Shown: positions 25,167 through 41,161 of the stretch, piece after piece | Layout of the letters: each line of letters opens with the position of its first letter | Position numbering within the stretch: position 1 is the stretch's first letter | Assembly (NCBI GenBank): GCA_963699155.1 | Contig: OY969414.1 | Location: 2,219,757-2,283,756 of the forward strand | Direction of reading: 5' to 3' | Source: an uncultured Chlamydiales bacterium | GTDB taxonomy: Bacteria; Chlamydiota; Chlamydiia; Chlamydiales; JAAKFR01 | DNA length: 64,000 nt | Program-made: the position numbers and the translations under genes | Notes under the pieces: model-generated | What the model was told of the DNA's origin: nothing | The model's input: only the letters and a program-made list of their open reading frames with translations | Databases searched by the model: none

Positions 25167-26903
25167 TCATTTAACTAGTGATGCGATTGTGCGGTGGGTT
25201 TTGAGGGCATCGAACTGTTTTGCCAGCTCCAGCACCTTCTCTTCGGAATGGCCCCCGCTTTGAATTTGCATCTTAACGGTCTCACGAATTTCCATCCATT
25301 CTCGATCGAGCAATTTTTGCACAGTCTCTAAAAAATGGGTTTCGGCCCTCTCTCGGTTCACTTTTTTCTGCAAGAGTTCATCGATCAGCGCAGGATCTTC
25401 GCAATTAGCGGCTAATGTGAACAGATCACTCTTTCCCTCGGTGAGGATTTTCTGAAAAAGGTGACGACAGGGGGGTGTCAGAAAATGTTTCTCAGTGAGA
25501 TATTTTCTTACCGTTGGCAAAAATCCCTCCCCCATCAAGAGCAGCCATCTCAATAGATCCAGCTCCAGAACCCTTTTAGGATCAATGGGGTTGAGAGTGA
25601 GTGCGGCATGGCTTCTCACAAAAGTGGGCGCAAAATGTTCATGCTTCACACCCACCATCTCTTCTGGAACGCGGATCAGAGAGGCCAGTTTACGCAGTGT
25701 CTCATGCACCAAAACAGGGTCATCCCACTCCCCAATCTGTTTTTTCAGCTGTTTCACCAATTCCGCCTTCCCTGCCGGAGAGTCGAGATTGAGCTCTCGT
25801 CCCAAATAACTCACCTGAAAGGCAAGATAGCTCTCCGATCGTTCGATCTCTTCGATCAAGCGAGCCGTGCCAAATTGGCTCAGATAGGCATCTGGGTCGC
25901 TCCCTTTAGGAAGATTGACCACAAAGACTTCGATCCCCCTTTTTTGAAGCAGATCGCCCACTTTAGAAGCAGCCGCTCTTCCCGCATCATCACCATCTAG
26001 AAGCAGATAGCCACTCCTCACTCCCAATTTCTGCAGCTCCTCTGCATGGCTTTCGCCAAAGGCAGTCCCCAATGCAGCGACACTCAAATTAAGACCTGCC
26101 TCGATCAATTTCAAACAGTCGATCTGTCCCTCAACAATGAGAGCCCTCCTCTCTTTGGCAATGCGTCGCCTACAGTAGTTGAGTCCAAACAAAATCCTCG
26201 ACTTCTTAAAGAGCTGAGTTTCAGGTGTGTTGATATATTTTCCGCCAAAAGTCTCTTCCTTATATTTCCGGGCCGAAAAACCGATCACAGCCCCCGCCGC
26301 ATTGCGTATAGGGAACGTAATTCTATCACGAAAGAAGGGCCTTGCCCCTCCCTCAACTAAAAGTCCCGACTCTACCAAGTGGGTCTCAAAGATCTTCTCT
26401 TTCCTCAGAAATGCCTTCAGTCCTGTCCCATCATTCGGGGCAATGCCCACCTCAAATCTCGCAATAAAATCGAGATTCAATCCCCTCTTAAATAAATAGT
26501 GGAGCGCCTCTCTCCCCTCCTCACTATATAATAATGTGGCGTGAAAGTAGTGGCAGGCCAAAGAGCAGGCCTCCTTCAATAAACTCTTATCTGTCCCCCT
26601 CTCTCCCTGATCCTGCCTCTCCAGAGGTACATGAAACCTCTCCGCCAATGCCTCAACGGCATCAACAAAACCTAAATTCATATGCTGCATCAGAAACTGA
26701 ATCGCATCTCCATGAGCTCCACAACCATAACAGTGGTAGTGGGTATCCCCTTTCTGGATCATAAAAGAGGGGCTTTTCTCCTGATGAAAAGGGCACAATC
26801 CCTTATGAGCCGCCCCCGCTCGCTTCAGATCGATATGAGCCGTCACGACCTCCAACAGGTCGATCTTCTCCTTCAGCCTCTCTAAACTCTCTTTCGTAAA
26901 CAT
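25167..26903 (-). CDS. dnaG: DNA primase
   Basis: CPFHQEKSPSF, CYGCG, KYINTPET, VEGQID, DGDDAG. Confidence 0.97.
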   Translation of the reverse strand: MFTKESLERLKEKIDLLEVVTAHIDLKRAGAAHKGLCPFHQEKSPSFMIQKGDTHYHCYGCGAHGDAIQFLMQHMNLGFVDAVEALAERFHVPLERQDQGERGTDKSLLKEACSLACHYFHATLLYSEEGREALHYLFKRGLNLDFIARFEVGIAPNDGTGLKAFLRKEKIFETHLVESGLLVEGGARPFFRDRITFPIRNAAGAVIGFSARKYKEETFGGKYINTPETQLFKKSRILFGLNYCRRRIAKERRALIVEGQIDCLKLIEAGLNLSVAALGTAFGESHAEELQKLGVRSGYLLLDGDDAGRAAASKVGDLLQKRGIEVFVVNLPKGSDPDAYLSQFGTARLIEEIERSESYLAFQVSYLGRELNLDSPAGKAELVKQLKKQIGEWDDPVLVHETLRKLASLIRVPEEMVGVKHEHFAPTFVRSHAALTLNPIDPKRVLELDLLRWLLLMGEGFLPTVRKYLTEKHFLTPPCRHLFQKILTEGKSDLFTLAANCEDPALIDELLQKKVNRERAETHFLETVQKLLDREWMEIRETVKMQIQSGGHSEEKVLELAKQFDALKTHRTIASLVK

Positions 26904-26970
26904 TCCCAAGATATTACTTCCCCATCCCCTAACCGTCAATGCCTCTCACACTCAATCACCTAAATCTTTT

Positions 26971-26999
26971 CTTTGCTTCTTCGCGTCTTTGCGTTGAAT
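26971..26999 (-). repeat. solo arm of the ACGCAAAG-octamer repeat family
   Basis: ctttgcttcttcgcgtctttgcgttgaat, same terminus as 30013-30025. Confidence 0.75.
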
Positions 27000-27051
27000 T
27001 ATTTCTTCAGCCCATTGACACGAAGCCTTACTATACCGTAGCCTTTTGGCT

Positions 27052-29523
27052 ATGTCCATGTCCAGCAACCTCGACGAAATAAAAACAACCCCCATGATGG
27101 AGCAGTGGCATCGCTGCAAGAAAGCTGCCAAAGGGGCTCTCCTCTTTTTCCGCATGGGCGATTTTTATGAGGCCTTTTATGAGGATGCGCGCATTATGGC
27201 CGAAGAGCTCGAGTTGACCCTGACCCAAAGAGGAGGAATCCCGATGAGCGGGGTTCCCTGGCATACCTGTGACAGCTATATCGACAGGCTGGTTGAGAAG
27301 GGATACCGGATTGCGGTCGCAGAACAGACAGAAGATCCCAAAAAAGCGAAGGGTCTCGTCAACCGTGAAATTGTCCGTTTTGTGACACCTGGAACGGTGA
27401 TCCATTCTGGACTCATCCGCGACAAAAGCTACAATTTTATAGCGTCTCTCAGTCAGGTGGGCTCGATTTTTGGTCTTGCTGTCTGCGACATCACTACCAC
27501 CTTCAGCCGAGTTGTGGAGGTCGATTCCCTTCAGGAGCTCATCGATGAGATCTACCGCTTATCACCTACAGAACTGGTGACGACCAAGAAATTCCAGGAA
27601 AAATATCCTACGTTGTTCCGTGAATGTGAAAAAACTCCTGTATCGCTGACCGATGAGTGGCGATTTGAGCACCAGACTGCCCTCACCTATTTGACAAACC
27701 ATTTTCAGCTGCCTCATCTCGACGGTTTTGGACTGAAAGGAATGGTGGCGGCGATCAATGCGGCTGGAGCACTTTTAGCCTATCTTCACGAAGAGCTAGC
27801 TCTTTCGATTACCCATATCCGAGAGGTCAAGCCTTATCCCTTTCATGAGGGTCTTCTGCTCGATAAGACCTGCCAGATGAACTTAGAATTGATCAATCCC
27901 CTCCATGACCACGGGAAAAAGACGACCCTTCTCCATGTGATCGATCATACCCTCACACCGATGGGGGGCAGGCTAATACGGGAGTGGTTGAAAAAACCTC
28001 TTATCGACATCAAGCAGATCCAACTTCGACAGGATGCTGTCGAAGCTTTTTTGCATCTCCCTGAGATTCGCACCCAGCTCCAACGTGATCTGAAAGAGGT
28101 CCGCGATTTGGAACGTCTCATGATGAGAGCCTCCTCAGGTTTTGCCACACCGCGCGATCTGGTCAGCCTCCGCCTCTCGCTAGAGAGGATAGTTCCGATC
28201 AAAAAGGCTGTCCGCAATGTGAGCAGTGAACTGCTTTTTCAGTGCGGAGAACAGCTGTCCGACCTCTCATCGCTTATCCTGCAATTGAAAAATGCGTTGA
28301 TCGATGAACCCCCTCTACGCATCTCTGAAGGCCATATTTTTCGAGATGGCTACCATTCTGATCTCGACCAGTTACGCAGCTTGATGCAAGGGAGCAAAGA
28401 GTGGCTGGCCCGTTATCAAGTCACGCTCAAAGAGCAAACAGGGATCAAAAATCTCAAAGTCAGCTTCAACAAAATTTTCGGCTACTACATCGAAGTGAGT
28501 AAAGGGCAGGCCCACTTGATGCCCACAGCCTTTGACCGCAGACAGACATTGGTCAATAGTGAGCGCTTCGTCTCCCCAGAGTTGAAAGAATATGAAAGCC
28601 GCGTGTTGACAGCAGAAGAGCGGAGCTTGAGCCTTGAGCAGGAGCTCTTCCATCAGTTGAGAAATGAGGTGATTGGCTATGAAAAACCCATCTTCACGAT
28701 GGCCAAAGCGATTGCCGAGATCGATGCGCTTCTCTCTCTTGCCCATGTGGCTCGCCATCGCCGCTTCTGCCGCCCGAAAATTGACTCCAGTCAGCAACTT
28801 TCCATTCTCGAAGGTCGTCATCCTGTTGTCGAAGCCACTGTGGAAAAAGGAACTTTCATCCCGAATGATACTCAACTCGATGATCAGGAGCGGATGATGT
28901 TGATTACGGGTCCCAACATGGCTGGGAAATCGACCTATATCCGCCAAGTCGCTCTCATAGTCATCCTCGCACAAATGGGGAGCTTTGTTCCTGCCTCGGC
29001 AGCCCACATCGGCATCATCGACCGCATCTTCACCCGCATAGGTGCAAGCGACGACCTATCCAGGGGGCATTCGACCTTCATGGTTGAAATGAGCGAGACC
29101 GCTAACATTCTCAATAATCTGACATCCCGCTCTCTCGTCATTCTTGACGAAATTGGACGTGGTACCAGCACCTACGATGGTGTCTCAATCGCCTGTGCAG
29201 TCGCTGAACATCTCCTCTCCACCCGCGCCAAGACCCTCTTCGCCACACACTATTGGGAGCTCACCGAGCTAGAAAAAACAATCCCCGGAGCCGTCAACTA
29301 TCACGCCTCGGTGCAAGAGTGGAACGACTCGATCGTCTTTCTCCATAAAATCTCTCGCGGCGGCACCGATCGCAGCTACGGCATCCATGTCGCCCGCCTC
29401 GCAGGCCTTCCCCTCCCCGTCATCCACCGCGCCACCGCCATCCTCTCCCACCTCGAATCCCGCAAAGACCCCTCCCGCCGCCCCAGGAAAGAATCTGCTG
29501 ATACCCAGTTAACTCTTTTTTAG
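27052..29523 (+). CDS. mutS: DNA mismatch repair protein MutS
   Basis: TPMMEQW, FRMGDFYE, TGPNMAGKSTY, DEIGRGTST. Confidence 0.97.
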   Translation: MSMSSNLDEIKTTPMMEQWHRCKKAAKGALLFFRMGDFYEAFYEDARIMAEELELTLTQRGGIPMSGVPWHTCDSYIDRLVEKGYRIAVAEQTEDPKKAKGLVNREIVRFVTPGTVIHSGLIRDKSYNFIASLSQVGSIFGLAVCDITTTFSRVVEVDSLQELIDEIYRLSPTELVTTKKFQEKYPTLFRECEKTPVSLTDEWRFEHQTALTYLTNHFQLPHLDGFGLKGMVAAINAAGALLAYLHEELALSITHIREVKPYPFHEGLLLDKTCQMNLELINPLHDHGKKTTLLHVIDHTLTPMGGRLIREWLKKPLIDIKQIQLRQDAVEAFLHLPEIRTQLQRDLKEVRDLERLMMRASSGFATPRDLVSLRLSLERIVPIKKAVRNVSSELLFQCGEQLSDLSSLILQLKNALIDEPPLRISEGHIFRDGYHSDLDQLRSLMQGSKEWLARYQVTLKEQTGIKNLKVSFNKIFGYYIEVSKGQAHLMPTAFDRRQTLVNSERFVSPELKEYESRVLTAEERSLSLEQELFHQLRNEVIGYEKPIFTMAKAIAEIDALLSLAHVARHRRFCRPKIDSSQQLSILEGRHPVVEATVEKGTFIPNDTQLDDQERMMLITGPNMAGKSTYIRQVALIVILAQMGSFVPASAAHIGIIDRIFTRIGASDDLSRGHSTFMVEMSETANILNNLTSRSLVILDEIGRGTSTYDGVSIACAVAEHLLSTRAKTLFATHYWELTELEKTIPGAVNYHASVQEWNDSIVFLHKISRGGTDRSYGIHVARLAGLPLPVIHRATAILSHLESRKDPSRRPRKESADTQLTLF

Positions 29524-29553
29524 ATCAAGTTGTTCTGGTATAAGCTTGAGGGC

Positions 29554-29592
29554 AGATTCAACGCAAAGACGCCAAGACGCAGAGGCGCAAAG
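29554..29592 (+). repeat. left inverted-repeat arm of the GxxExxY cassette
   Basis: agattca-acgcaaag-acgccaag-acgcagag-gcgcaaag. Confidence 0.9.
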
Positions 29593-29610
29593 AGGGGTAA
29601 AGAGGGGTAA

Positions 29611-29988
29611 ATGGAAAATGAATTATCTCATGAAATCATCGGTGCTGCGATAGAGGTGCATAAAGTTTTGGGAGGCCCGGGGCTTCTGGAAAGCATTTAT
29701 GAAGCTGCTCTATGCCATGAGTTATCTTTACGAGGGCTAAAATTTGAAAGACAGAGGATAGTACCCGTAGTATACAAAGGAGTCTCTATAAAAGAACCCT
29801 TCTATCTTGATGTACTAGTAGAAAAGAAAGTCATTATTGAGATAAAGGCGACAGAAGAAAAACATCCTATTCATCTAAACCAAATACTGACATACTTACG
29901 ATTAACAGGTATTAAATTAGGTCTACTTATTAACTTTGGAGAAAAGTGCCTCAAAGATGGGATTGGCAGAGTCGTCAATGATCTATAA
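29611..29988 (+). CDS. GxxExxY protein (PD-(D/E)XK nuclease-like fold)
   Basis: IIGAAIEVH, GPGLLESIY, YLDVLVEKKVIIEIKA, QILTYL, GLLINFG. Confidence 0.93.
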   Translation: MENELSHEIIGAAIEVHKVLGGPGLLESIYEAALCHELSLRGLKFERQRIVPVVYKGVSIKEPFYLDVLVEKKVIIEIKATEEKHPIHLNQILTYLRLTGIKLGLLINFGEKCLKDGIGRVVNDL

Positions 29989-30130
29989 CTTTGCGTCTCT
30001 GCGTCTTTGCGTCTTTGCGTTGAATCTTGACGCACGCTTTGCGTCTTGGCGTCTTTGCGTTGAATCTTGACGCACGCTTTGCGTCTTGGCGTCTTTGCGT
30101 TGAATCTTGACGCACGCTTTGCGTCTTGGC
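29989..30130 (-). repeat. right inverted-repeat arm plus three exact 40-bp tandem copies
   Basis: 29989-30027 matches the reverse complement of 29554-29592 at 37/39; gtctttgcgttgaatcttgacgcacgctttgcgtcttggc three times at 30011-30130. Confidence 0.92.
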
Positions 30131-30143
30131 GATTCATTTTTTT

Positions 30144-31994
30144 ATGTTTGATGTGGAGCAGTTGAAACAATTTCCGACGGAGCCTGGGGTCTATCTCATG
30201 AAAGATAGCACCGGGATGGTGCTCTACGTGGGGAAGGCGAAGAATTTGCGGGCCCGCGTGAAACAATATTTTGTGCCTGGGCGGGATGGGCGAGAGATGG
30301 TCCCCTATCTGACGAGCCAGGTGGCGGCGATCGATGTGGTTGTGGTCAGTTCAGAAAAAGAGGCCTTGATTCTGGAGAATAATCTCGTCAAGGAGCATTG
30401 GCCCAAATACAATGTTTTGCTGAAAGATGATAAGTCATTCTTTAGCCTCATGATCAATCATAAGCATGAATGGCCGATGATTCGGATCGTCCGATTTAAA
30501 GGAAAAGCTCCTGCGGGCAATCTCTATTTTGGCCCTTATGCTCACGGCTATGCTGCGAGGCAGACATTGGATTTGCTTAGGAGGCTCTTTCCGATGCGTC
30601 AATGTTCAGACCGGGAGTTGGGCTCGCGAACGCGTCCCTGCATACTCTACGATTTGAAACAGTGCATTGCCCCTTGTGTCTTGAAATGCACCCATGAGGA
30701 ATATAACAGCCTGGTCAAACGGGTTATCGATTTTCTACGTGGTCATGATTCGGCTATTCTGAAAGAGTTGAAGACAGAGCGAGAGGCAGCGGTCGAGATG
30801 CTCGCTTTTGAAAAGGCGGAAAGGATCCATCAAACGATCCTCTACATCGAAAAGACGCTGGAAAAACAGAAAGTGGAGCAGGCGGGAATGGCCGACCGGG
30901 ATGTGATCGCCCTCTATCGGGAAGCCGATCGGGTGGCTTTGTCACAGCTGATTTTCCGTGAAGGAAAGCTCATGCGCTCATATGACCGTTTTTTCAACCA
31001 TAATGCGCAAAGTGATGCCGAATTGCTCTCCTCCTTTATCTTGCAAATGTATGGGGGTCAAGAACTCCTTCCCCACGAGATTCTTCTTCCTGTCACCCTT
31101 GCAGATGCAGAAGCTATATCTGAGTTGATTGCGACGGGGAAAAAGAGAGGAGTCGCTATTTTACATCCTCAACGAGGTAACAAAAAAGCGCTCGTGGAGA
31201 TGGCTGAAGCAAATGCGAAAGTGAGATTTTCCCTTGAAAAAGAGGAGGCCAATGAAAAAGAGAAGATACTTTTGGGGCTTGAGGAGACATTCCATCTCAC
31301 AAACTATCCAGAGCGCATCGAGTGCTTTGATAATTCCAACATCGCAGGTACAGAGCCAGTCAGTGCTATGGTTGTCTTCACTGATGGAGAAAAGGATTCA
31401 CAGCGCTATCGGAAATATGCGCTGAAAAAAACGGCTCCCTCCGATGATTATGGGGCGTTGAAAGAGGTTCTAGAGCGGCGCTATAAAAGAGCGAAACAAG
31501 AAGAGGAGGCGCTGCCCGATCTGATCTTGATCGATGGGGGCAGGGGCCATCTCAACATGGCTCTCGAGGTTCTTTCTGAACTAGATATCAGCACTGTTGA
31601 TCTCATTTCCATCGCCAAGGAAGAGGGACGGCATGATAAAGGGATGACAGCAGAGCAGATCTTTCTTCCGGATGTTCCAGAGCCGTTCATTTTAAAGCCT
31701 AACTCTCCCATCCTCTTTTATCTTCAACGCATCCGAGATGAAGCCCACCGTTTTGCCATCACCTATCAGCGGCAGAGGCGGAAGAAAAAGACTTTTGCCA
31801 GCGCTCTCGATCAGTTACCAGGGATAGGACCGATTAAAAAGCAGAGGCTCTTACGCCACTTTGGCAGCCTCAAACGGATTCTTGCGGCCACTCCCGATGA
31901 GTGGCAATCGATTCCAGGAATCACTAAGAGGGATATCGAGACTCTGAACTCCTTGAAGAAGCAGCAGCTTGATGCGGATGAAAGCTCACATTAA
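30144..31994 (+). CDS. uvrC: excinuclease ABC subunit C
   Basis: PGVYLM, YVGKAKNLR, ECFDNSN, PDLILIDGG, RDEAHRFA. Confidence 0.97.
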   Translation: MFDVEQLKQFPTEPGVYLMKDSTGMVLYVGKAKNLRARVKQYFVPGRDGREMVPYLTSQVAAIDVVVVSSEKEALILENNLVKEHWPKYNVLLKDDKSFFSLMINHKHEWPMIRIVRFKGKAPAGNLYFGPYAHGYAARQTLDLLRRLFPMRQCSDRELGSRTRPCILYDLKQCIAPCVLKCTHEEYNSLVKRVIDFLRGHDSAILKELKTEREAAVEMLAFEKAERIHQTILYIEKTLEKQKVEQAGMADRDVIALYREADRVALSQLIFREGKLMRSYDRFFNHNAQSDAELLSSFILQMYGGQELLPHEILLPVTLADAEAISELIATGKKRGVAILHPQRGNKKALVEMAEANAKVRFSLEKEEANEKEKILLGLEETFHLTNYPERIECFDNSNIAGTEPVSAMVVFTDGEKDSQRYRKYALKKTAPSDDYGALKEVLERRYKRAKQEEEALPDLILIDGGRGHLNMALEVLSELDISTVDLISIAKEEGRHDKGMTAEQIFLPDVPEPFILKPNSPILFYLQRIRDEAHRFAITYQRQRRKKKTFASALDQLPGIGPIKKQRLLRHFGSLKRILAATPDEWQSIPGITKRDIETLNSLKKQQLDADESSH

Positions 31995-32475
31995 AGACGA
32001 ACTCCCCATCATACTGACATTGCTTTTTCAAAGTGAGAACAAGAACCCGTTCGATTTCGTTGAGGATATGTTCTCGGCTGCTTTCTGAAAGAGGAGGAAT
32101 ATTCGCCATGATCTCAATCTTTCCCTGCGCTCTGCCAAATACTTCGCAAGCCACAGATTGGCCAGGGAAAAACTTTTGTAAGCTCTCCTCTGCAAAATGG
32201 GCAAGAACGCGATCTTCTATAGAAACCCCACCCATTTTTAAGAGAAAATAGCGGCGTCTGCTCAGCCGAAAAAGTGCCGCTAAAAAGAGCAGACCAGAGA
32301 GAAATAGGCAAAGTCCAAAGTAGGAGAGCCTCTCCTGATGATTCAGGATAAGCGCCCTGATAGCCAATTCTAGGTTGGGAAGATAGCGGATCAGAAAGAG
32401 AAAAAGGCCCCCACAAATCATCAGGAAGCCAAGGAGTAAACCCAAAAGTGAAATGAGAAGATGTTGCCTTTTCAT
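31924..32475 (-). CDS. hypothetical membrane protein
   Basis: Two N-terminal TM segments; directly follows the Asp23-family gene. Confidence 0.7.
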   Translation of the reverse strand: MKRQHLLISLLGLLLGFLMICGGLFLFLIRYLPNLELAIRALILNHQERLSYFGLCLFLSGLLFLAALFRLSRRRYFLLKMGGVSIEDRVLAHFAEESLQKFFPGQSVACEVFGRAQGKIEIMANIPPLSESSREHILNEIERVLVLTLKKQCQYDGEFVFNVSFHPHQAAASSRSSESRYPS

Positions 32476-32478
32476 ACC

Positions 32479-32898
32479 CTATTGATCTAATGCGATCATT
32501 TTCTCTGCTAGCTGCTCCTTCGGTGGGATCAGCCCCTTAACCACCACATGGATGCTCGCTACGTGAAGACCTGTCAGCTGGATGATCTCTTTGACAACTT
32601 TATTTTGAACCTCTTCCGCTTTTTCTGGAATGGAGATCCCATAAGCAATAGTGATTTCTACATGAACTTTGACCGAATGGTTCTTACTGTCTTGCTCAAC
32701 AGTGATTCCTTTGACTTTTTCGACCTCTCGGCCTAAAAGAGAGTCAATCAAACCGCCACCGAGGAGACCGACACCCTCAATCTTGCCGAGGCAGTATAAA
32801 ATAATCACTTGAATGACTCGACTTTCGATATCTCTGCTAAAAACTGTTCGGGGAACTTCAAATTCCTTTGTATCTACTTTAACTGGTCTTTCAGCCAT
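32479..32898 (-). CDS. Asp23/Gls24 family envelope stress protein
   Basis: IEGVGLLGG, VKGITV, YGISIPE, LTGLHVASIHVVV. Confidence 0.88.
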   Translation of the reverse strand: MAERPVKVDTKEFEVPRTVFSRDIESRVIQVIILYCLGKIEGVGLLGGGLIDSLLGREVEKVKGITVEQDSKNHSVKVHVEITIAYGISIPEKAEEVQNKVVKEIIQLTGLHVASIHVVVKGLIPPKEQLAEKMIALDQ

Positions 32899-32955
32899 CA
32901 ATCCCCCATTTAATTTGAAAAAAAACCACCTAGAAAGTAAAATTGTAGATTATCT

Positions 32956-33372
32956 ATGGGTATGTTGCAACTAATCATATTGCTTTTTGGACTCATCTTT
33001 GGTCTATTGACCTCCTCTTTTGCAACCAAACGGGGCCGCTCCCCCCTTCCCTGGTTCATCGCCGGGTTTATGTTCGGGATTTTCGGCTTAGCAACACTTC
33101 TCTTGCTGCCTCTTATTAAAAAAAAGAGCCAGCAGACCATTGTCAAAAAAACAGCCCCCCAGATCACACGGAGCGATGCCTGGCTGAAACTCTGGTATTA
33201 TCTCGATCCAAACCACTCCCAAAAGGGACCAATCGAGTTCCCTGAGCTCATTCAATCTTGGAAAGCGCGCCAAATTGGCGAGTCGACCTTCATTTGGGGA
33301 GAGGGAATGGCTGAGTGGAAAAGGTTGCGCGATCAACCCGACATCATCACAGAGATCGAGCAAGCCCCCTAA
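32956..33372 (+). CDS. membrane protein with GYF_2/DUF4339 domain
   Basis: KRGRSPLPWF TM region; WYYLD...KGP...IWGEGMAEW. Confidence 0.85.
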   Translation: MGMLQLIILLFGLIFGLLTSSFATKRGRSPLPWFIAGFMFGIFGLATLLLLPLIKKKSQQTIVKKTAPQITRSDAWLKLWYYLDPNHSQKGPIEFPELIQSWKARQIGESTFIWGEGMAEWKRLRDQPDIITEIEQAP

Positions 33373-33379
33373 ATACCCT

Positions 33380-33423
33380 GAGCGCGAAGCGCTCCCTGGA
33401 GTGCTGCGTTCTACGCCCCGCCC
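33380..33423 (+). repeat. REP copy 5 (degenerate)
   Basis: gagcgcgaagcgctc-cctggagt-gctgcgttctacgccccgccc. Confidence 0.8.
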
Positions 33424-33744
33424 TCTATCGGCTAACTCGACGTCGACGCCCAAGACCTCGAAATCGTCGCCGACCTCATCGCCCAAGAATTCACCACTTC
33501 GCTTTAGCTGTCGAGAAACTGGCTAACTCACTTTCAATTATTGGAGTGAAATCGTCGAAAAAACAAGATGGTACAGAACCTCAAAAAAAACCTCTTGTTG
33601 GGATTTCAGTAGACTTTTGATGGAAGAGCTTGAAGCGGCCTAAGGGGCGAGACTTCAGAGGGTGGCGCCGAGCAACGGCTCGGCAATTGAGTGGCAGCGG
33701 CCCATTGAGGGCCGCGAGCGATCTTCGGTGCCAGAGGTGGGTTG

Positions 33745-34050
33745 TTACCAGCTTGCTTTGGTGACGCCGGGGATCATGCCCAGGCCGGCCAGTTCGCGGA
33801 AACAGAGACGTGAGACTTTAAACTTACGGAGATAGCCGTGAGGGCGACCAGTAAGCTGGCAGCGATTTTTGAGGCGCGAGGGTGAGGTATCTCGGCGCAT
33901 TTTATTGAGGGCTACGCGGGCAGCTTCCCTCTCTTCTTCAGAAATATGGATATTTTTGGATTGACTACGAAGCTCAGTACGACGCTGCCAATTTAATTTT
34001 ACAAGCTTTTCACGCTTTTTTTGTTTTGCAATTGAAGAAGTTTTTGCCAT
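33745..34050 (-). CDS. rpsN: 30S ribosomal protein S14
   Basis: [27 protein letters not shown]. Confidence 0.97.
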
Positions 34051-34062
34051 TCTATCCCTTCA

Positions 34063-34200
34063 CTATTTTTTACGAGCAGGACCCTTCTGACGCTGTTTGC
34101 GGTTGGGGTCTTTTTTGTTAATCACATAGAGACGACCACGACGACGAACAAGTTTGTCGCCTTTTGTGGGGTCGGCCTTGATTGAGGCTGCTGTCTTCAT
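34063..34200 (-). CDS. rpmJ: 50S ribosomal protein L36
   Basis: Manual translation [45 protein letters not shown]. Confidence 0.95.
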
Positions 34201-34320
34201 GACAATCCTTAATGTTCTCATTAAAAGATAGCAATTTACTGCAGATCCCCATTTTTTGCAATTGTCATTTTCGTAGCCATCTGCTATTCTCTCACCCTTA
34301 AAGTTAAAAAGGAAAATAAG

Positions 34321-34458
34321 ATGTTACGCACCTATCAACCCAGCAAAAAGCGGCGCAAAAAAGCGACCGGCTTTCGCGCGAGAATGGCCACTAGAGGGGG
34401 ACGCAAAGTCCTGGCACGCCGCAGAAAATCGGGCCGTTTCCAGCTCACAGCTGTCTGA
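34321..34458 (+). CDS. rpmH: 50S ribosomal protein L34
   Basis: Manual translation [45 protein letters not shown]. Confidence 0.96.
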
Positions 34459-34482
34459 TAGAGTATCGGCTTGGCAGAGGGG

Positions 34483-34833
34483 ATGGTTTCTTTCAACTTT
34501 CCAAAGGGATTACGCCTATTAAATGGTCACCAGTTCCGCCGCGTCTCAAAACAGGGAGGCAGCTGCACAGGTCACTTCCTCTCCCTCACCCTCTGCCAAG
34601 CTGATACCCTAAAATTGGGGTTGACTGTCTCCCGAAAGTTTGGAAATGCCGTCGAACGCAACCGGTTTAAGCGGCTCGTGAGAGAGGCCTTCCGCCTTTC
34701 CCAACATGACCTTCCCCCACTCCACCTCAATGTCCGCCCCACCTCCCCTGCAGCCCAATCAGCCACCCTCCACGAGATTCAGTCTGAACTGAAAGCCCTT
34801 TGTGCTTCATGGACAACAAGCGCAGTGAGCTAA
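34483..34833 (+). CDS. rnpA: ribonuclease P protein component
   Basis: LGLTVSRKFGNAVERNRFKRLVREAFR. Confidence 0.95.
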   Translation: MVSFNFPKGLRLLNGHQFRRVSKQGGSCTGHFLSLTLCQADTLKLGLTVSRKFGNAVERNRFKRLVREAFRLSQHDLPPLHLNVRPTSPAAQSATLHEIQSELKALCASWTTSAVS

Positions 34834-34842
34834 TTCTTTCTG

Positions 34843-34942
34843 AAGATTCAACGCAAAGACGCTAAGACGCAAAGACACAAAGAAGGAGGGTACGCGAAGC
34901 GCTCCTATTTCTTTGCGCCTCTGCGTCTTTGCGTTGAATCTT
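34843..34942. mobile_element. gene-less (MITE/REPIN-like) copy of the ACGCAAAG inverted-repeat element
   Basis: aagattcaacgcaaagacgctaagacgcaaagacacaaagaa ... ttctttgcgcctctgcgtctttgcgttgaatctt with a ~24-nt spacer. Confidence 0.85.
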
Positions 34943-34953
34943 GACGAAGAACT

Positions 34954-35925
34954 TTAACGGGCGGTGGTGGAGCGGATGTAGTTGAGGGAGTGGGCGATCT
35001 CGTCGTGCATGGTGGAAGGGGCTGTCTGGAGCGCTTTTTCGGCATGGAGTAGGGCCTTCTGCATGAGATCAGCCTCCATGTAGTGCTGAGCGATCATCAT
35101 CTCGATGCGCCAGACATTTTGGTCATCTTTTAGCCCGAAATGGTCGAGATAGTCTAATAGGGGTCGCACTGCTTCATCTGCAGGAATCGGCTTTTGGGAG
35201 AGATCCTGGAAATCGATCAAAGCTAGCGTAAAGTGGAGGGTGAGTTGGTTATCGGGATCAAGAGAAGTGATTTTTTCACGCAGCTGCTGCGTGGATTTTT
35301 TTTGGCCTTCACCTCGTTCAACAAGCAGGCGATACTTTTCGAGAAAAAAGAAAGAGTCTTCCGTTTTGAGCCCCGCATCAAGGATGCTCTCTTGCTCCTT
35401 CTGTCTGGCCAATTCTTGAGCAATCTGATAGAGCTTTTTCAATGCAGCCGGATCTGAACTCAGATTCTTCATTCCTTCGATCAATTGGCCATCTTGGCCG
35501 AGAATATGGACCAGATCATCTGCAAACTGCTCTCCACTCTCAGGGAGATAACCGATCTGAGCAATCACCCTTTCCTGGGAATCGAGCAATAGAAGTGTGG
35601 GCGTCTCTTGCACATGGAAGCGCTTTTTCAGCTCTTGGTTTTGTGCCATCTTCTTTTCTGAAAGGGCGGTATGTTCAGGAAAGTCGATTTCCATGCAGAG
35701 GAATCTATGAGCGATTTTTTGCTCAAAGGCGAGGGTATCGAGGACCTCACGTTTCATCCACATCGCTTCCCCAGACCAATCGGAGCCATTGAAAAAAAGG
35801 AGGATCGGCTTTTCATCTTGCCGACTAAGTGCAACCACTTTGTCATAATCGGTCTGCCATTGGAGTGCAGAAAGGGAAAATGACAATGAGAAGCTTAAAA
35901 AAAATAAGATCGCAAAAAAATTCAT
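34954..35925 (-). CDS. exported thioredoxin-fold protein with helical C-terminus (DsbH paralog)
   Basis: Signal peptide; KPILLFFNGSDW, IDFP, TPTLLLLD; CXXC replaced by SGEA. Confidence 0.8.
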   Translation of the reverse strand: MNFFAILFFLSFSLSFSLSALQWQTDYDKVVALSRQDEKPILLFFNGSDWSGEAMWMKREVLDTLAFEQKIAHRFLCMEIDFPEHTALSEKKMAQNQELKKRFHVQETPTLLLLDSQERVIAQIGYLPESGEQFADDLVHILGQDGQLIEGMKNLSSDPAALKKLYQIAQELARQKEQESILDAGLKTEDSFFFLEKYRLLVERGEGQKKSTQQLREKITSLDPDNQLTLHFTLALIDFQDLSQKPIPADEAVRPLLDYLDHFGLKDDQNVWRIEMMIAQHYMEADLMQKALLHAEKALQTAPSTMHDEIAHSLNYIRSTTAR

Positions 35926-36014
35926 CGCCTAATCCTCTTTAAAGGGCCTCAAAAAGCTGCAAGAGCGCAAATAGTTTTCTGAGAGGCCCCTCATGGAGAG
36001 GGGCTCTCTTTTAA

Positions 36015-36563
36015 TTAATATTGCAACAGAGTTCTCAGATAATCGGCGTAGGCCTTTCCACCACCAGGGCGGTAACCCGTTTCTGCAATAAAGTTCTCGT
36101 TGGAATCGAGAATGATGATGGTAGGATAACCTGTCACACCATATTTTTGCTTGAGTTGGGTATTTTGCTGTTGGTGATCCGCTGGTAGCTGTTGGTTCAT
36201 AGGAAAGTCAACGTCAACAAAGACGAAGGCAGTGCCCACTTGGCTAGCAAACTCTGGAGATGAGAAAATCTCTTGCTGCATTTTTTTGCACCAACCACAC
36301 CAGTCTGACCCTGTAAAAAAGAGAAGCAGAGGCTTATGGCTTCTGGCTGCTTCTTGCACAGCTTGTTGATAATTGGTGAACCAATTGATCTGAGTAGGTT
36401 GTGCAGGTGGTGTCGCTTGTGCTGTTGGATTTGTAGGTGCTGTTGGATTTGCGGGTGCTCCCTGAGAATGGTTAACATCAGTTGGTGCAGAATCAGCAAA
36501 TGAAGGGATGACCCCAAATGTGACAATCGCACAACAGATCGCGACAAAAATTTGTTTGTTCAT
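36015..36563 (-). CDS. dsbH: periplasmic thiol-disulfide oxidoreductase DsbH-like
   Basis: FFTGSDWCGWC, VDFP, GYPT; signal peptide. Confidence 0.85.
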   Translation of the reverse strand: MNKQIFVAICCAIVTFGVIPSFADSAPTDVNHSQGAPANPTAPTNPTAQATPPAQPTQINWFTNYQQAVQEAARSHKPLLLFFTGSDWCGWCKKMQQEIFSSPEFASQVGTAFVFVDVDFPMNQQLPADHQQQNTQLKQKYGVTGYPTIIILDSNENFIAETGYRPGGGKAYADYLRTLLQY

Positions 36564-36646
36564 TTTTTTCTCCTCCTAATAGAGAACATGCTATTTACGA
36601 CGTTATATCATTTACTAAAACAGCATAAAATGGTATACTTTTCTTC

Positions 36647-37165
36647 ATGCGATTTCATCAAATCTCTGATAACGAACAGTTTCCACCTACGATCGTCATC
36701 CGCCATAAGAAGGAAAATCTCAAAAAATGTTCATTGCGCGGTTTAGAAAACCGTTCCGATTTTTTATTTTATCGCTATCCGCTGCAAGCGCTTCCTGCGT
36801 TGGAAAATTACCTGCTCTTATCCTTAGAGAGTGAAGTAGATCTCTCGATAGACGATCGTGATTCTGGCCTACTCCTCCTCGATGCCACCTGGAAATATGC
36901 TCAAGAGATGGGGAAAAAAATCGATTTTCCTGCAACGCTCCAGAAGCGGCGCCTCCCGGGAGAGTTGATCACAAGCTATCCTCGTCGCCAGCAAGACTGT
37001 CTCGATCCGCAACATGGCTTAGCTTCTCTCGAAGCGATCGCAGCGTCCTATGCGATTTTGGGAAGGTCGATTGAGGGGCTTCTCGATCATTATTATTGGA
37101 AAGACTCTTTTATCGAAAAAAACAAAGGGTTTCTGATAAATTGCCAGCATGCAAACAAATGTTAA
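36647..37165 (+). CDS. Tsr3/DTW-like aminocarboxypropyltransferase
   Basis: HKKENLKKCS, LLLLDATW, RRLP, SYPR, LASLEAIAA. Confidence 0.7.
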   Translation: MRFHQISDNEQFPPTIVIRHKKENLKKCSLRGLENRSDFLFYRYPLQALPALENYLLLSLESEVDLSIDDRDSGLLLLDATWKYAQEMGKKIDFPATLQKRRLPGELITSYPRRQQDCLDPQHGLASLEAIAASYAILGRSIEGLLDHYYWKDSFIEKNKGFLINCQHANKC

Positions 37166-37775
37166 AAGCCGCTTTGCTTTTCATCATCAAAATGAGGCTC
37201 TGCTTTTCCAATTTCTTTTGCATGAATCCCTCTCTGCTCACAACATTTTGAGACAAAAACCCTCACCACTGCTTCTCTGCCAAGTGATTGGACCGATCGA
37301 TCGAGAAAATGTCTGGCAAAGCATGTTGGGTCATCTGCCACGTCTGCGCCACTATTGCTCTCTCTTTATCAAATATTTTGATGAAGGGGCTTCTCCTTTA
37401 TCCCAACAGTTGCACGATACACTAGAAAGGGCCCAAAAGGTAGCTCGCAAATGCTCCCTATTTCAAGAGAAAAGTCTAGATGAACAAAAAATGCTCTACA
37501 GGCCACTCAAAAAGGAGCTTGTCAATGTGATCAAACTCCTTTTGCAGAAAGTATACGACTATAAAGAGAATCCATCGATTCTCCTTTTCTTGCTGCGCCA
37601 CCAAGAAGAGTGCCGTACCGTTTTTCGGAAACCGATTGTCAAGGATCTCTTTTCTGACATTTTTCCCGATGGCAGAGATCAGGCTTACGCCTTTCTTTCT
37701 GAAAAATTTTCACAAAAAGGGTTTGAACATCTGATTCCCTCAATAGAAACCTACCTCAAACAGCTGAGATTTTAG
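37149..37775 (+). CDS. hypothetical protein
   Basis: 208-aa ORF overlapping both neighbours in an operon. Confidence 0.7.
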   Translation: MQTNVKSRFAFHHQNEALLFQFLLHESLSAHNILRQKPSPLLLCQVIGPIDRENVWQSMLGHLPRLRHYCSLFIKYFDEGASPLSQQLHDTLERAQKVARKCSLFQEKSLDEQKMLYRPLKKELVNVIKLLLQKVYDYKENPSILLFLLRHQEECRTVFRKPIVKDLFSDIFPDGRDQAYAFLSEKFSQKGFEHLIPSIETYLKQLRF

Positions 37776-38419
37776 TGAAAGCCCATCGCGAGTTGGCTAC
37801 ATTAGTACGTGACACCCGCCTCTATCTCCAAACATTGGTGAAGGGAAAGGTAGAACCATTAGTGAAGGGAAAAGCAGAACTGTTGGTGAAGGGAAAGGTA
37901 GAGCCAGTGGTAAAGGGAGAAAGTGCCGTTGAGAAACCCGCTCCAAAAGAAGCTCCCAAAGTGGTAGTGAAGGCAGAAAGAGCCCCACAGCCTCTTCTTC
38001 CCAATCCCAAGTGGGAGCTCCATCCGATGGAACAAGCGACGCTCCCAGTGGGGCTACAGGGGAGAATTGCCTCCTCAACACAAGTTTCGGATCCCCCATT
38101 AGATCTTTGCTTAGTCTTGCCAGAAGAAAATAGCCACCACAGGCTTTTTTTAGAAAACGTCGCACGCGCCGTCACACGCTCTTTCGCTTCATCGGTCGTT
38201 GTGCTTTATCAAGAAACCCTTTTCAAAAAACCGATCAGCCGTTTTCTTCTTCTCCCTGCGGATCTCTTGCAGAAAAAATTTCCCAAAGCACGTCCCCACC
38301 ATCCGATCGTCGATGGCGGAGTAACCTGGATTCCTTTGGAACCACTCGACCTCTATGCCCTCGACATCAACGCAAAACGAGCTTTATGGATGGCTATTCA
38401 ACGTTTGTTTCAGTCATAG
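37775..38419 (+). CDS. hypothetical protein upstream of priA with 8-aa tandem repeats
   Basis: LVKGKxEx repeats; C-terminal KRALW. Confidence 0.7.
   Translation: MKAHRELATLVRDTRLYLQTLVKGKVEPLVKGKAELLVKGKVEPVVKGESAVEKPAPKEAPKVVVKAERAPQPLLPNPKWELHPMEQATLPVGLQGRIASSTQVSDPPLDLCLVLPEENSHHRLFLENVARAVTRSFASSVVVLYQETLFKKPISRFLLLPADLLQKKFPKARPHHPIVDGGVTWIPLEPLDLYALDINAKRALWMAIQRLFQS
37835..37924 (+). repeat. 24-bp in-frame tandem repeat (~3.7 copies)
   Basis: ttggtgaagggaaaggtagaacca-type units. Confidence 0.85.
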
Positions 38420-40617
38420 TTGACCTGGGACTCAATCGTCAGCTCGATTATGGGGTCCCACAGGAATGGGAGGGGCGGATTAAAAGAGGGATGCAGGTCG
38501 AAGTGCCCCTCCGTGGACAGTTGTGCGTCGGGTATATCTTCGAAATTAAGAAAGAGGCGAGCCATCCCAAGGTCCTCCCCCTCCATTCTCTCTTATCCAA
38601 TGATGAGCTTTTAACGGAGGAGATCTTCGAGCTTGTCATCTGGATGAGTCGCTACTACAATGCCCCTCTCAACCAGGTCCTCAAAACCGTTTTACCTGCA
38701 ACCATCCGCAATCAGACGCCACACAAAGAACAATTTTTTGTGAAACGCTCCTTGTCATTAGAGAAACTGCGGAAGCTCTGTATCGAGCTGCGCGAAAAGT
38801 TTCCCTCACAAGCACGCGCCCTCGATCATCTCTTAATGGCAGAGAAAGGAATGCTGCTCACTGAACTGATGGAAAAGGCTGAGATCTCACGCAGCCCCGT
38901 CGATACATTGGAAAAACAGGGCTACATCACTTTAGAAAAGGTCTGTTTCGACCGCTCGCCACTTCAGGGCGAGGAATATTTCAAAACAACCCCCAAGCAG
39001 CTCAACGAGGCGCAAGGCCAAGCTTTTGAGAAAATTACCCAGGCAGTGAAAGAGAATAAATTTGAAACCCATCTGCTCTACGGCATTACGGGGAGTGGAA
39101 AGACTGAGATCTACCTCCAGGCCATCGAATATGCGCTCGCTTTAGGAAAAAGTGCCCTCATGCTAGTACCTGAGATCTCTTTGACTGGACAGACGATCGA
39201 GCGCTTTCGCTCACGCTTTGACCAGCGGATCGCCATCCTTCACCACCGCCTAAGCCCCGGAGAGCGCTCTGACGAGTGGCGCCGGATCAAACGGGGAGAG
39301 GCCGAGATTGTCATCGGAGCCAGATCAGCCCTCTTTTGCCCTCTCCGAAACCTTGGCCTCATCATCATCGATGAGGAGCATGATGGCGCCTACAAACAGA
39401 GTGAGGAGAGCCCCTGCTATCATGCCCGCGATGTGGCCGTGATGCGCGGCAAGCTCAGCAAGGCGGTCGTCATCTTAGGAACCGCCACTCCAAGTCTCGA
39501 AAGCTACCACAATGCCAAAACGGGAAAGTACCAGATGACATTCCTACCCACACGTGCTTCCAAGGCATTTTTACCGAAAGTCCACATTGTCGACATGAAA
39601 CCTGAATATGAAAAAGCGCGCGGCTTTACCTGCTTTTCAGAACTTTTGATCGGCAAAATGAAAGAGCGGCTCGAACTGGGTGAACAGACCATTCTCTTCC
39701 TCAACCGGCGCGGCCACAACACCAGCTTGCAGTGCAAAGCGTGCGGCCATATTTTTAGCTGCCCCTCTTGCGATTTGACCCTCACCTTCCATCGTGGGGA
39801 AAATACCTTAGCGTGTCATCTCTGTGACCACCATATCTCCCCTCCCCCCAGCCGTTGCCCCAAATGCAACACGCAAGAAACTCTTAAATATCATGGTATC
39901 GGTACAGAGTCCGTAGAAAGAGCTGTGCACGCCCTTTTCCCGGAAGCACGCACCCTTCGCATCGACAGCGACACGACGCGGCATAAAGGGAGCCATGAAC
40001 GGCTCCTCAGAAGCTTCAGCACCCAAAAGGCTGATATTCTCATCGGCACCCAGATGGTCGCCAAAGGGCTCCACTTCCCCTCCGTCACGCTCGTCGCTGC
40101 CATCAATAGCGATGGAGGCCTCCATATCCCCGACTTCCGCTCTTCGGAACGCGTCTTTCAGCAGATCACCCAAGTCGCCGGCAGAGCAGGCCGCGGTGAG
40201 CTTCCCGGGGAGGTGATCATCCAGACTCAGATGCCCGATAACCTCACCATTCTCCAAGCCTCACAGCATAACTACGACGCCTTCTTCCACTCTGAAATTG
40301 AGAGCCGCAAACTCTTCGGCTTTCCCCCCTTCACCCACTTTGTCAAACTCACCTTCAGTGGCCCTGACTCCCTCAAAACCCAACAAGAGGCCGAAAAATT
40401 CCGCGCCGTAATCACTCCCCCACCCCACTCTCAAGTCCACCCCATCGTCCCCTCCGGCTACGCCAAAATCCGTGACATGTACCGCTTCCAGTGCCTCATC
40501 CGCGGCCCCAGCATCTACGCCATCAACCACTCCCTCGACCAAGCTGTGAAGCGCTATGCATTACCACGATCGATCCGCCTCCATATCGACATCGACCCAA
40601 TCTCTACTTATTATTAA
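38386..40617 (+). CDS. priA: primosomal protein N'
   Basis: GITGSGKTEIY, DEEH, four CxxC, QVAGRAGR. Confidence 0.97.
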   Translation: MDGYSTFVSVIVDLGLNRQLDYGVPQEWEGRIKRGMQVEVPLRGQLCVGYIFEIKKEASHPKVLPLHSLLSNDELLTEEIFELVIWMSRYYNAPLNQVLKTVLPATIRNQTPHKEQFFVKRSLSLEKLRKLCIELREKFPSQARALDHLLMAEKGMLLTELMEKAEISRSPVDTLEKQGYITLEKVCFDRSPLQGEEYFKTTPKQLNEAQGQAFEKITQAVKENKFETHLLYGITGSGKTEIYLQAIEYALALGKSALMLVPEISLTGQTIERFRSRFDQRIAILHHRLSPGERSDEWRRIKRGEAEIVIGARSALFCPLRNLGLIIIDEEHDGAYKQSEESPCYHARDVAVMRGKLSKAVVILGTATPSLESYHNAKTGKYQMTFLPTRASKAFLPKVHIVDMKPEYEKARGFTCFSELLIGKMKERLELGEQTILFLNRRGHNTSLQCKACGHIFSCPSCDLTLTFHRGENTLACHLCDHHISPPPSRCPKCNTQETLKYHGIGTESVERAVHALFPEARTLRIDSDTTRHKGSHERLLRSFSTQKADILIGTQMVAKGLHFPSVTLVAAINSDGGLHIPDFRSSERVFQQITQVAGRAGRGELPGEVIIQTQMPDNLTILQASQHNYDAFFHSEIESRKLFGFPPFTHFVKLTFSGPDSLKTQQEAEKFRAVITPPPHSQVHPIVPSGYAKIRDMYRFQCLIRGPSIYAINHSLDQAVKRYALPRSIRLHIDIDPISTYY

Positions 40618-40643
40618 ATGCAAAGACACAGAGACGCAAAGAG
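40617..40643 (+). repeat. degenerate solo arm of the ACGCAAAG repeat
   Basis: aatgcaaagacacagagacgcaaagag right after the priA stop. Confidence 0.65.
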
Positions 40644-40650
40644 ATAAGAA

Positions 40651-41022
40651 TTAGATGCCCCCAAAATCTTCAGAATTGGGCTGGTGAGGCGGTTTGCGGG
40701 CGATGGAGGGTTCAGCGATGTAGAGGTCGATCTTCTCTTTCTGTAATTTCTCCCTTAAGGTTATTGAACCCGCAAGGATCAGCCCGATAGCCGCTGGTAC
40801 GCATAGGTCTATTCCAAATACTCCCGATCCCACAGATGGCAATGGACCTTTGAATTTAAGAAAAACTGTAAAGGCAAGAATCCCTAAAACGAGTCCAATT
40901 ACCAGAAGAGTTGTCCCGCTTGCAATACCGCTGATTGCCAAACTACGACGTGTTCTTCCTGCTTCGGTAAGCCCTTCAGAACCATGTCTGGAATAAGCAT
41001 CTGAAATTGATTGAATTGCCAT
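40651..41022 (-). CDS. small Inc-like protein
   Basis: Ser-rich start, two hydrophobic lobes, AT-rich upstream region. Confidence 0.65.
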   Translation of the reverse strand: MAIQSISDAYSRHGSEGLTEAGRTRRSLAISGIASGTTLLVIGLVLGILAFTVFLKFKGPLPSVGSGVFGIDLCVPAAIGLILAGSITLREKLQKEKIDLYIAEPSIARKPPHQPNSEDFGGI

Positions 41023-41161
41023 AATTATCCTAACTAAATTGTTACTATAGTTAAATTATAGCTTAGTATTGTTAATGAGTTATAAAGATTAATTGCTAAA
41101 GGAATTTGTTGATAGAAAAAGGATTGAAGGAGAGGGGGGATTGATGTATGGTAGTGGGGCT

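Follow-up and report, generated by a model that had tools for sequence, protein, structure and literature searches.

The 64,000-nucleotide window analysed here, taken from the genome of an uncultured Chlamydiales bacterium (contig OY969414.1, positions 2,219,757 to 2,283,756), carries a lone gene of the GxxExxY family between mutS and uvrC, enclosed by two inverted arms built of octamers. The locus raises the question of why a gene for a small protein with a PD-(D/E)xK nuclease fold should lie between such arms, which recur in the window without the gene. The evidence described below points, with high confidence, to a selfish cassette of arm, gene and arm that spreads horizontally and leaves behind palindromic derivatives without the gene. 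The reading towards which we lean, with slightly better than even confidence, is that this widespread cassette encodes a nuclease that recognises its own arms, the inverted unit arrays between which its gene lies. By the same measure, the interval 29554-30131 would represent one complete copy of the cassette, with arrays of three or four 8-9-nt units, here ACGCAAAG.

A gene between inverted unit arrays

The left arm (29554-29592, + strand) consists of an outer end, AGATTCA, followed by the octamers ACGCAAAG ACGCCAAG ACGCAGAG GCGCAAAG, which form a period-8 tract at 29561-29593. The right arm (29989-30027, - strand) is the reverse complement of the left arm and begins at the base directly after the stop codon TAA (29986-29988) of the GxxExxY gene. 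Direct alignment of 29554-29592 with the reverse complement of 29989-30027 gave 37 matches in 39 positions, as described in the initial annotation of this DNA, and a repeat search extended the pair to 51 nt at 86%. The same annotation had placed the start of the right arm at the base after the stop codon and reported three exact 40-bp copies; both statements were borne out, the copies of the outer right arm (two octamers, TTGAAT and CTTGACGCACG) forming a tandem array at 30009-30131 (TRF period 40, 3.3 copies, 98% matches) that ends 12 nt 5' of the likely uvrC ATG. The spacer between the left arm and the ATG of the gene (29581-29610, + strand) is made of about three copies of AGAGGGGTAA (TRF 29581-29611, period 10, 3.1 copies) and contains a GAGG Shine-Dalgarno-like motif as well as an in-frame TAA adjoining the ATG. 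The gene itself (29611-29988, + strand) encodes a 125-aa protein of predicted PD-(D/E)xK fold, which matches PF13366 (PDDEXK_3; E 6.1e-40, 136.7 bits against a cut-off of 22, residues 4-121 of 125) and TIGR04256 (GxxExxY; E 1.1e-41, 141.8 bits against a cut-off of 35).

A scan of one genome per species returned at least 575 relatives of this protein, and the best 80 of these at least 575 were used for tests of the flanks. The 80 loci belong to Chlamydiota, Chloroflexota, Verrucomicrobiota, Planctomycetota, Acidobacteriota, Bacteroidota, Geobacter relatives and the archaea Methanothrix and Methanophagaceae. Relatives that are only about 50% identical in protein carry octamer-like tracts a few bases past the stop codon which differ in sequence (CTCTGTG, CTTTGTG, CTCGGTG, CTCAGTG, CTGCGG) and have their complements upstream. 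The arms nevertheless share one design, with a core C-R-C-N-R-A-G repeated at a spacing of 8-9 nt, an outer TT(A/C)A(C)C and an inner GAGAA or GAGG. In some relatives the frame is open upstream of the gene and the arms encode peptides such as NAKTPRRQDAEK or TTEHTENTEKKK.

When at least three cores were required, a sense arm was present upstream of 43/80 GxxExxY genes compared with 2/532 control open reading frames (ORFs) of the same loci, an antisense arm downstream of 31/80 compared with 1/532, and both arms around 25/80 compared with 0/532, with either arm beside 49/80 genes. At a threshold of at least two cores the numbers of genes, out of 80, were 60 (upstream), 45 (downstream), 41 (both) and 64 (either). 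These counts are lower bounds, since the strict regular expression for the core overlooks variants such as GACAAAG and CACTAAG. A motif-blind inverted-repeat score of at least 36 was reached at 45/78 loci of GxxExxY clade 1, to which the window gene belongs, and 16/25 loci of clade 2, compared with 3/516 controls. By both kinds of count the flanks of GxxExxY genes are enriched in periodic inverted arms far above control ORFs, an enrichment that the initial annotation had proposed to look for.

The view that the octamer tracts are ordinary simple repeats of low complexity that happen to lie beside the gene has a practically negligible probability. The 443,512 bp of loci contain 154 arm tracts and their shuffled versions contain none; in the window genome, which is complete (G000; single contig, 2,399,326 bp, GC 47.5%) and whose nearest relatives place it among the environmental chlamydiae (Parachlamydiales), the three-unit arm pattern gave 145 hits and the reversed pattern 0; and the orientation of the arms relative to the gene is conserved across phyla. 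The shuffled loci and the reversed pattern refute this view. No published description of a gene-plus-arms unit was found and the arm sequences were unmatched in a literature search that covered mostly open-access articles; nor did any of the papers found there on GxxExxY address function. A survey by Steczkiewicz et al. gives the function of PF13366 as 'Unknown' and its history as 'multiple transfers, mixed clades' (PMC3424549).

Arm motifs, protein types and transcription

The motif carried by the arms changes with the protein that they enclose. A search for clade 2 in 301 genomes of the phylum gave 79 genomes with a match. Clade-2 genes, with 46-63% identity to a second gene of the window genome, are flanked by octamer-like units with the cores CAGGAT, AACGAT, CATGAT or CAAGAT, often together with a CGCAAGCG mini-hairpin. 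A parallel case is provided by the four-helix-bundle genes of PF05635, the '23S rRNA IVS protein' (intervening sequence) family, which were detected in 8 of 41 related genomes, G000 having none, and which lie between inverted arrays of hexamers, e.g. GAGCCCGCGCCCGAGCCCGTGCCCG vs CGGGCTCGGGCTCG. Each motif class is kept despite a divergence that saturates neutral sites, which shows selection on the motif itself, and cognate recognition would be expected to give each type of protein a motif of its own. From the linkage of gene and arms, the clade-specific motifs and the conserved catalytic residues, we infer with moderate confidence that the nuclease acts on its own arms.

The second element family in G000 (coordinates on its single contig, C1) has an intact clade-2 copy at 1919338-1920203, with CAGGAT units and a CCCGCAAAGCGGG hairpin in its arms, and further copies at about 1275860-1276495, 1513642-1514268, 2185426-2185951 and 2351887-2352517. 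These five copies reach up to about 865 bp, with inverted repeats of about 80 nt, and at least three of them are internally deleted, with one breakpoint in common. The arms around a broken GxxExxY gene at 1712075-1712233 (- strand) are of a CACAGAG type, which adds a third variant to those of this genome. The arm-gene-arm loci of PF05635 (L116-L120 and L124, in genomes G031, G017, G001, G005 and G003) have hexamer units CGGGCN / GAGCCC.

Gene and arms also occur together at the level of whole genomes. Among the 41 related genomes, PF13366 was matched in 19 and the three-unit arm pattern was detected in 19. The pattern was present in 16 and absent from 3 of the genomes with a match, and present in 3 and absent from 19 of those without one (Fisher odds ratio 33.8, p 7e-6, a p-value that overstates the association as kin are not independent); the reversed pattern gave 0-3 hits per strand per genome. 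The initial annotation had suggested comparing gene presence with the genome-wide repeat, and the two do go together (16/19 genomes with the gene vs 3/22 without it). Among the genomes with a gene and no pattern, that of G021 belongs to a divergent clade with TGATTA-type arms and those of G015 and G018 lie at contig ends. The three arm-bearing genomes without a PF13366 match are 74%, 71% and 90% complete.

The first two of these three, G001 and G010, with 27 and 14 arm hits respectively, are what would be expected if the gene were a passenger, that is, if the palindromes were moved or kept by an unlinked transposase, a hairpin-targeting insertion sequence or host recombination, and GxxExxY were cargo of benefit to itself or to the host, such as an addiction or defence nuclease. 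Other ORFs sometimes found within arms (a DUF5677 gene in locus L112 and an unassigned 156-aa ORF in L052) are in line with this explanation, as are the gene copies of genome G035 that are carried in a larger composite repeat. The incompleteness of G001 and G010, however, weakens their testimony, GxxExxY is the only constant ORF between arms across the 80 loci from many phyla, and the arm motif class shifts with protein clade and family, all of which makes a passenger role rather improbable. Moreover, no Y1 transposase was detected in the two most arm-rich genomes (G000 and G003), and the window protein matched no PADLOC (defence) or PHROG (phage) family.

The DUF5677 gene mentioned above (E 3.8e-8) lies within CRCNRAG arms at L112:1640-2491, in a metagenome-assembled genome of Pirellulales, directly after a GxxExxY cassette. 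Genome G035, of 1.9 Mb, has 67 PF13366 matches and about 40 near-identical, arm-bounded 272-bp remnants of the 3' half of the gene (L136-L157). These matches were considered as proof of amplification driven by the arms and rejected as such: the remnants sit in a 1.1-kb composite repeat, and their spread is not creditable to the arms.

A further question is whether the arms act as DNA or as RNA. An RNA-level cassette resembling an rRNA intervening sequence would be transcribed with the host operon, and its arms would pair into a long stem. The arms would be kept because this stem undergoes processing (e.g. by RNase III) or serves to insulate or stabilise the cassette mRNA, and the element would spread via host recombination or transformation instead of through the nuclease. 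The orientation of the genes agrees with such a cassette: the upstream neighbour lies on the strand of the gene in 78/91 elements and the downstream neighbour in 63/84, and both neighbours share its strand in 53/74 and oppose it in 5/74. The arms adjoin the start and stop codons, the right arm following the stop within 10 nt in 27/51 elements. No convincing promoter was found inside the unit (one weak promoter-like match within the gene, where shuffles average 0.9), and PF05635, known from ORF-bearing 23S rRNA intervening sequences (PMC4990558), shows the arm-gene-arm design too. Based on the co-orientation and on the arm adjoining the stop codon, the cassette probably relies for its expression on transcripts that read through from the host gene upstream.

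The arms themselves speak more for a DNA motif. A clear inverted repeat was present in 51/91 elements, and 1,819 of 2,158 aligned positions matched between their two arms. The 339 mismatches carried no RNA-strand signature: those compatible with G-U pairing were about as numerous on the sense strand (89) as on the antisense (85; p 0.82), and another 165 were transversions. In G000 the two arms of one element often differ in unit number, and their likeness (31.5 of 38 positions) was not significantly above that between elements (30.9; permutation p 0.12), with no significant sign of concerted evolution. The mismatch pattern, the likeness of the arms and the unequal unit numbers suggest that the arms are arrays of a motif that is recognised rather than stems under selection to pair. 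In addition, the conservation of a 7-nt core across phyla exceeds what pairing needs, a nuclease with intact catalytic residues would have no role in an RNA-level cassette, and no Rfam family matched the arms or palindromes in window 26000-41500, where the sole hit at E<=1 was an unrelated weak L13 leader. Altogether, an RNA-level cassette seems unlikely, though the co-orientation leaves some likelihood to an RNA-level role of the arms.

Gene-less copies and empty sites

Within the window the same arms had been annotated without the gene as a pair at 34843-34942 and as solo arms at 26971-26999 and 40617-40643, always intergenic, and each of them does lie between ORFs. The pair consists of two arms around the centre GGAGGGTACGCGAAGCGCTCCTATTT and is located between the convergent ORFs 34471-34833 (+) and 34954-35925 (-). 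As single-stranded DNA this 100-nt palindrome is predicted to fold with a minimum free energy of -36 to -37.5 kcal/mol (z -9 to -10), a value equalled by 0/200 shuffles. The solo right-type arm at 26971-26999 (- strand) lies in the divergent spacer 5' of mutS, and the solo left-type arm at 40617-40643 (+ strand) starts at the final stop-codon base of a 743-aa ORF.

Throughout G000, three ACGCAAAG units with at most 4 mismatches formed clusters, 45 of them on the + and 46 on the - strand (about 90 arm tracts, most of them paired into gene-less palindromes), and the end motif TTCAACGCAAAGAC with at most 2 mismatches marked 68 left and 75 right ends. Arm tracts with at least three cores fell outside an ORF set covering 89% of the genome in 85/101 cases, and 10 of the 16 tracts inside ORFs belong to a single 50-bp tandem array. 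Twenty-four paired gene-less elements of 77-108 bp were listed, each composed of an arm, GGAGGGTACGCGAAGCGCTCCTATTT (which includes GCGAAGC) and a reverse arm, and some gene-less elements are joined to a terminator-like module or tandemly amplified. PF13366 has seven matches in this genome, namely the window gene, a second full gene of the other clade at 1919509-1919919 and five fragments, among them the broken gene at 1712075 and three from the internally deleted clade-2 copies, and the window element holds the only intact clade-1 gene enclosed by arms.

The gene-less arrangement ...AAGGAGGGTA-cgcgaagcgct-CCTATTTCTTTGCG resembles the occupied ...AAGAGGGGTA-ORF-CTATAACTTTGCG minus the ORF, which is compatible with either deletion or insertion. 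No direct repeat is common to the flanks of the 24 gene-less copies, and the inverted repeat often runs outward (AGA...TCT, TTTAA...TTAAA). Among the gene-less copies of G000 no replication-strand bias of the asymmetric centres was evident (5:10 and 7:6 per replichore, with tandem copies collapsed).

Two further features of the G000 repeats concern their composition. A second, small palindrome type shares the terminal TTCAACGCAAAGAC and has a terminator-like core AAAGCGCCACTGGCGCTTT (C1:349825-349905); it is found alone and also merged with octamer arms, the junction being a repeated CGTCTTT unit, with joined copies at 534828-535000, 885252-885580, 912496-912811 and 1344952-1345125. Tandem amplification of arm-containing units was observed at 520344-520767, 849379-849776, 2337164-2338135 and 2378590-2378925, with unit sizes of 50 bp (x9), 151 bp (x3) and 125 bp (x8) and a 49-bp internal unit repeated about five times.

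The window cassette is an insertion absent from close relatives; it entered the short spacer between mutS and uvrC and is oriented as the operon is. Its 5' neighbour is mutS (27046-29523, + strand), with MutS domains I-V (E 1.9e-85 to 1.5e-21), and its 3' neighbour is uvrC (+ strand, to 31994), with GIY-YIG, UvrC RNase H and HhH domains; the uvrC ORF is open from TTG 30126, and the likely ATG at 30144 agrees with the starts in relatives. The three genes are all on the + strand, and these domain matches together with those to PF13366 and TIGR04256 uphold the description of a lone GxxExxY gene between mutS and uvrC. The synteny of mutS and uvrC is preserved in five relatives. Empty sites, which the initial annotation had proposed to seek, were found in three of them, where the mutS-uvrC spacer is shorter than about 35 nt and has no arms (G001 and G003, of the same genus, and G012, of another genus). 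The spacer of G002, also of the same genus, holds a left arm TAATTAAACGCAAAGACACAAAGGCGCAAAG and about 40 codons of the gene, followed by unrelated repeat DNA, and that of G005 holds an unrelated 1.4-kb insert. The solo arm at window position 40617 is missing from the corresponding site in G002, and at the G002 counterpart of the 34843 site another palindromic insert is present along with a right arm in decay. The differences at these three sites indicate that the elements come and go within one genus.

In G002 a palindromic repeat with ends TACCATTTCCAGAAAATAAAG is located at about 2201130-2201240 and 2206330-2206760 of contig C1 (L131/L191); it truncates the GxxExxY remnant and also fills the site matching window 34843. 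The 1.4-kb insert of G005 (L130, contig C35) carries opposite-strand ORFs and is flanked by a 45-nt direct duplication of the 3' end of mutS, which makes the mutS-uvrC spacer a hotspot for another integrating element.

The nuclease and its relation to known systems

Members of the PD-(D/E)xK nuclease superfamily are defined by an alpha-beta-beta-beta-alpha-beta core and a D...(D/E)xK triad. Based on its sequence and its predicted structure, the window protein belongs to this superfamily. Its AlphaFold2 model (pLDDT 93.8, pTM 0.86) has the order helix-helix-strand-strand-strand-helix-strand. Across 90 aligned sequences G22, G24, E27, Y30, D67 and N108 show no variation, and the conservation of E77 and K79 is at least 90%; the window protein carries the G24/E27/Y30 motif as well as D67, E77 and K79, indicating that the triad is intact. 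The structural matches returned by Foldseek, Cas4 SSO0001 (4ic1, E 7e-4, TM 0.52), the archaeal Holliday-junction resolvase Hjc (2wiw/2wcz/1gef, TM 0.42-0.44), lambda-exonuclease-like proteins and Bax1, are all general PD-(D/E)xK neighbours, and a search of PDB sequences with a sequence profile gave 0 chains at E<=1.

In the mechanism that we propose, the nuclease would recognise the arrays of units at each end of the cassette, whether in the form of duplex terminal repeats or of a hairpin or cruciform that has been extruded, and would cut at the recognised arms. Cutting may then promote the copying or movement of any arm-bounded segment, and the gene-less copies would be non-autonomous derivatives served in trans.

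Several observations weigh against a nuclease that recognises and mobilises its own arms. The activity of the protein, its binding and the movement of the cassette are predicted from sequence. A match between arm type and protein clade would arise from linkage alone, and the genomes behind the association of gene and arm pattern are statistically non-independent. The ends show no consistent target-site duplication, and in G000 each of the five clade-2 copies continues for about 80 nt past the inverted repeats on each side. Arms occasionally bound other ORFs, as in L112 and L052, and the G035 remnants are nested in a larger repeat. The strong co-orientation with neighbouring genes suits a constraint on RNA or expression equally with a DNA mechanism. 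Finally, G000 has one intact clade-1 gene against about 45 gene-less elements, which leaves current activity of the cassette unproven.

The initial annotation had likened the layout to that of repetitive extragenic palindromes (REP) and their associated transposases (RAYT). The likeness proved general in that an enzyme gene lies between its own inverted repeats, many gene-less palindromes are dispersed between genes and the presence of the repeat tracks that of the gene; membership of the REP/RAYT family did not hold. RAYTs are HUH/Y1 transposases, whereas the enzyme here is a 125-aa PD-(D/E)xK protein. PF01797 (Y1_Tnp) had no match in G000 or G003, genomes with 145 and 144 arm hits respectively, and a RAYT/Y1 transposase was accordingly rejected as the enzyme for these repeats. 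The published comparison system is that of REP/REPIN and RAYT (REPtrons; PMC3116915, PMC3337134), and a REP is reported to be a single imperfect palindrome of 20-40 nt with a conserved GTAG or CGTC head (PMC3733652). The arms described here instead are arrays of 8-9-nt units, in the window genome 3-4 tandem octamers ending in TTCAAC, with a GTAG end in some lineages only, e.g. in G035. The GxxExxY gene has a patchy distribution that mixes phyla and is often in decay, in which it differs from what is known of RAYTs.

Insertion sequences (IS) and miniature inverted-repeat transposable elements (MITEs) have terminal inverted repeats, short gene-less derivatives, intergenic insertions and presence/absence between relatives. 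The cassette shares these four traits and differs in its ORF, which is PF13366 only, with no DDE, HUH, serine, tyrosine or DEDD transposase, and in its unit-array ends; the flanks of the 24 gene-less copies gave no clear target-site duplication. The cassette works like REP/RAYT or IS/MITE and belongs to neither family.

PD-(D/E)xK enzymes are known from other mobile DNA, such as TnsA of Tn7, the homing endonuclease I-Ssp6803I and the Rpn/YhgA-like nucleases. They belong to the same catalytic superfamily as the window protein and act on DNA of their own or related elements; the window protein lies outside their sequence families and, to our knowledge, none of them has unit-array arms. TnsA requires a DDE partner, TnsB, and homing endonuclease genes are found inside introns or inteins. 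The mark of a homing endonuclease gene is that it interrupts the site its own product recognises, and alleles without the gene carry that site whole.

The STRR heptamer repeats of heterocystous cyanobacteria are short tandem units in inverted, hairpin-capable intergenic tracts, which they have in common with the arms; STRRs are heptamers and confined to one phylum. An integron cassette has a single attC after an ORF that lacks a promoter, with an integrase and attI nearby, whereas the window gene has arms on both sides and mutS and uvrC as neighbours. A 23S rRNA intervening sequence lies in a helix of that rRNA and is cut out of its precursor. Intervening sequences that bear an ORF, S23p/PF05635, are reported from Coxiella and Leptospira (PMC4990558). 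They resemble the cassette in having a small ORF in inverted repeats within a host transcript, and PF05635 genes of this bacterial order share the arm-gene-arm design. The window cassette, in contrast, lies between the protein genes mutS and uvrC and not in an rRNA helix, its ORF family and unit type are different, and cassette arms carry no RNA-strand signature.

The conserved gene-plus-arms unit gives the large GxxExxY/PF13366 family, to which no function is assigned, a testable substrate, namely its own flanking arrays. If the nuclease mobilises its arms, the cassette would be a type of mobile element driven by a class of enzymes for which transposition without a partner is not known. It would then also give rise, in many phyla, to palindromic repeats between genes of the kind that breaks up assemblies and affects how operons are built. 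Tentatively, and with rather less than even confidence, it may be proposed that these cassettes are prokaryotic mobile elements of a new class, spread over more than ten phyla of bacteria as well as archaea. Their sole protein, a PD-(D/E)xK nuclease of about 125 aa, would read the 8-9-nt unit arrays on either side of its own cassette and would mobilise any DNA bounded by arms, including gene-less hairpin copies. The PF05635/hexamer system would be a sister system working alike, and would explain the origin of ORF-bearing rRNA intervening sequences. The four-helix-bundle parallel offers a way into the old puzzle of how such intervening sequences spread, and the recognition of short tandem units by a 125-aa nuclease, sequence-programmable, could serve as a tool.

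The genome of this bacterium is unusually rich in repeats. Dispersed families of about 53 nt and of 150 nt, unrelated to the octamer arms, are present at C1:1918857-1919330 and in about 30 other places. Tandem repeats detected by TRF in the window at 5360-5477 and 37833-37918 have units of 27-33 bp (CCT/CCA-rich) and of 24 bp (x3.6).

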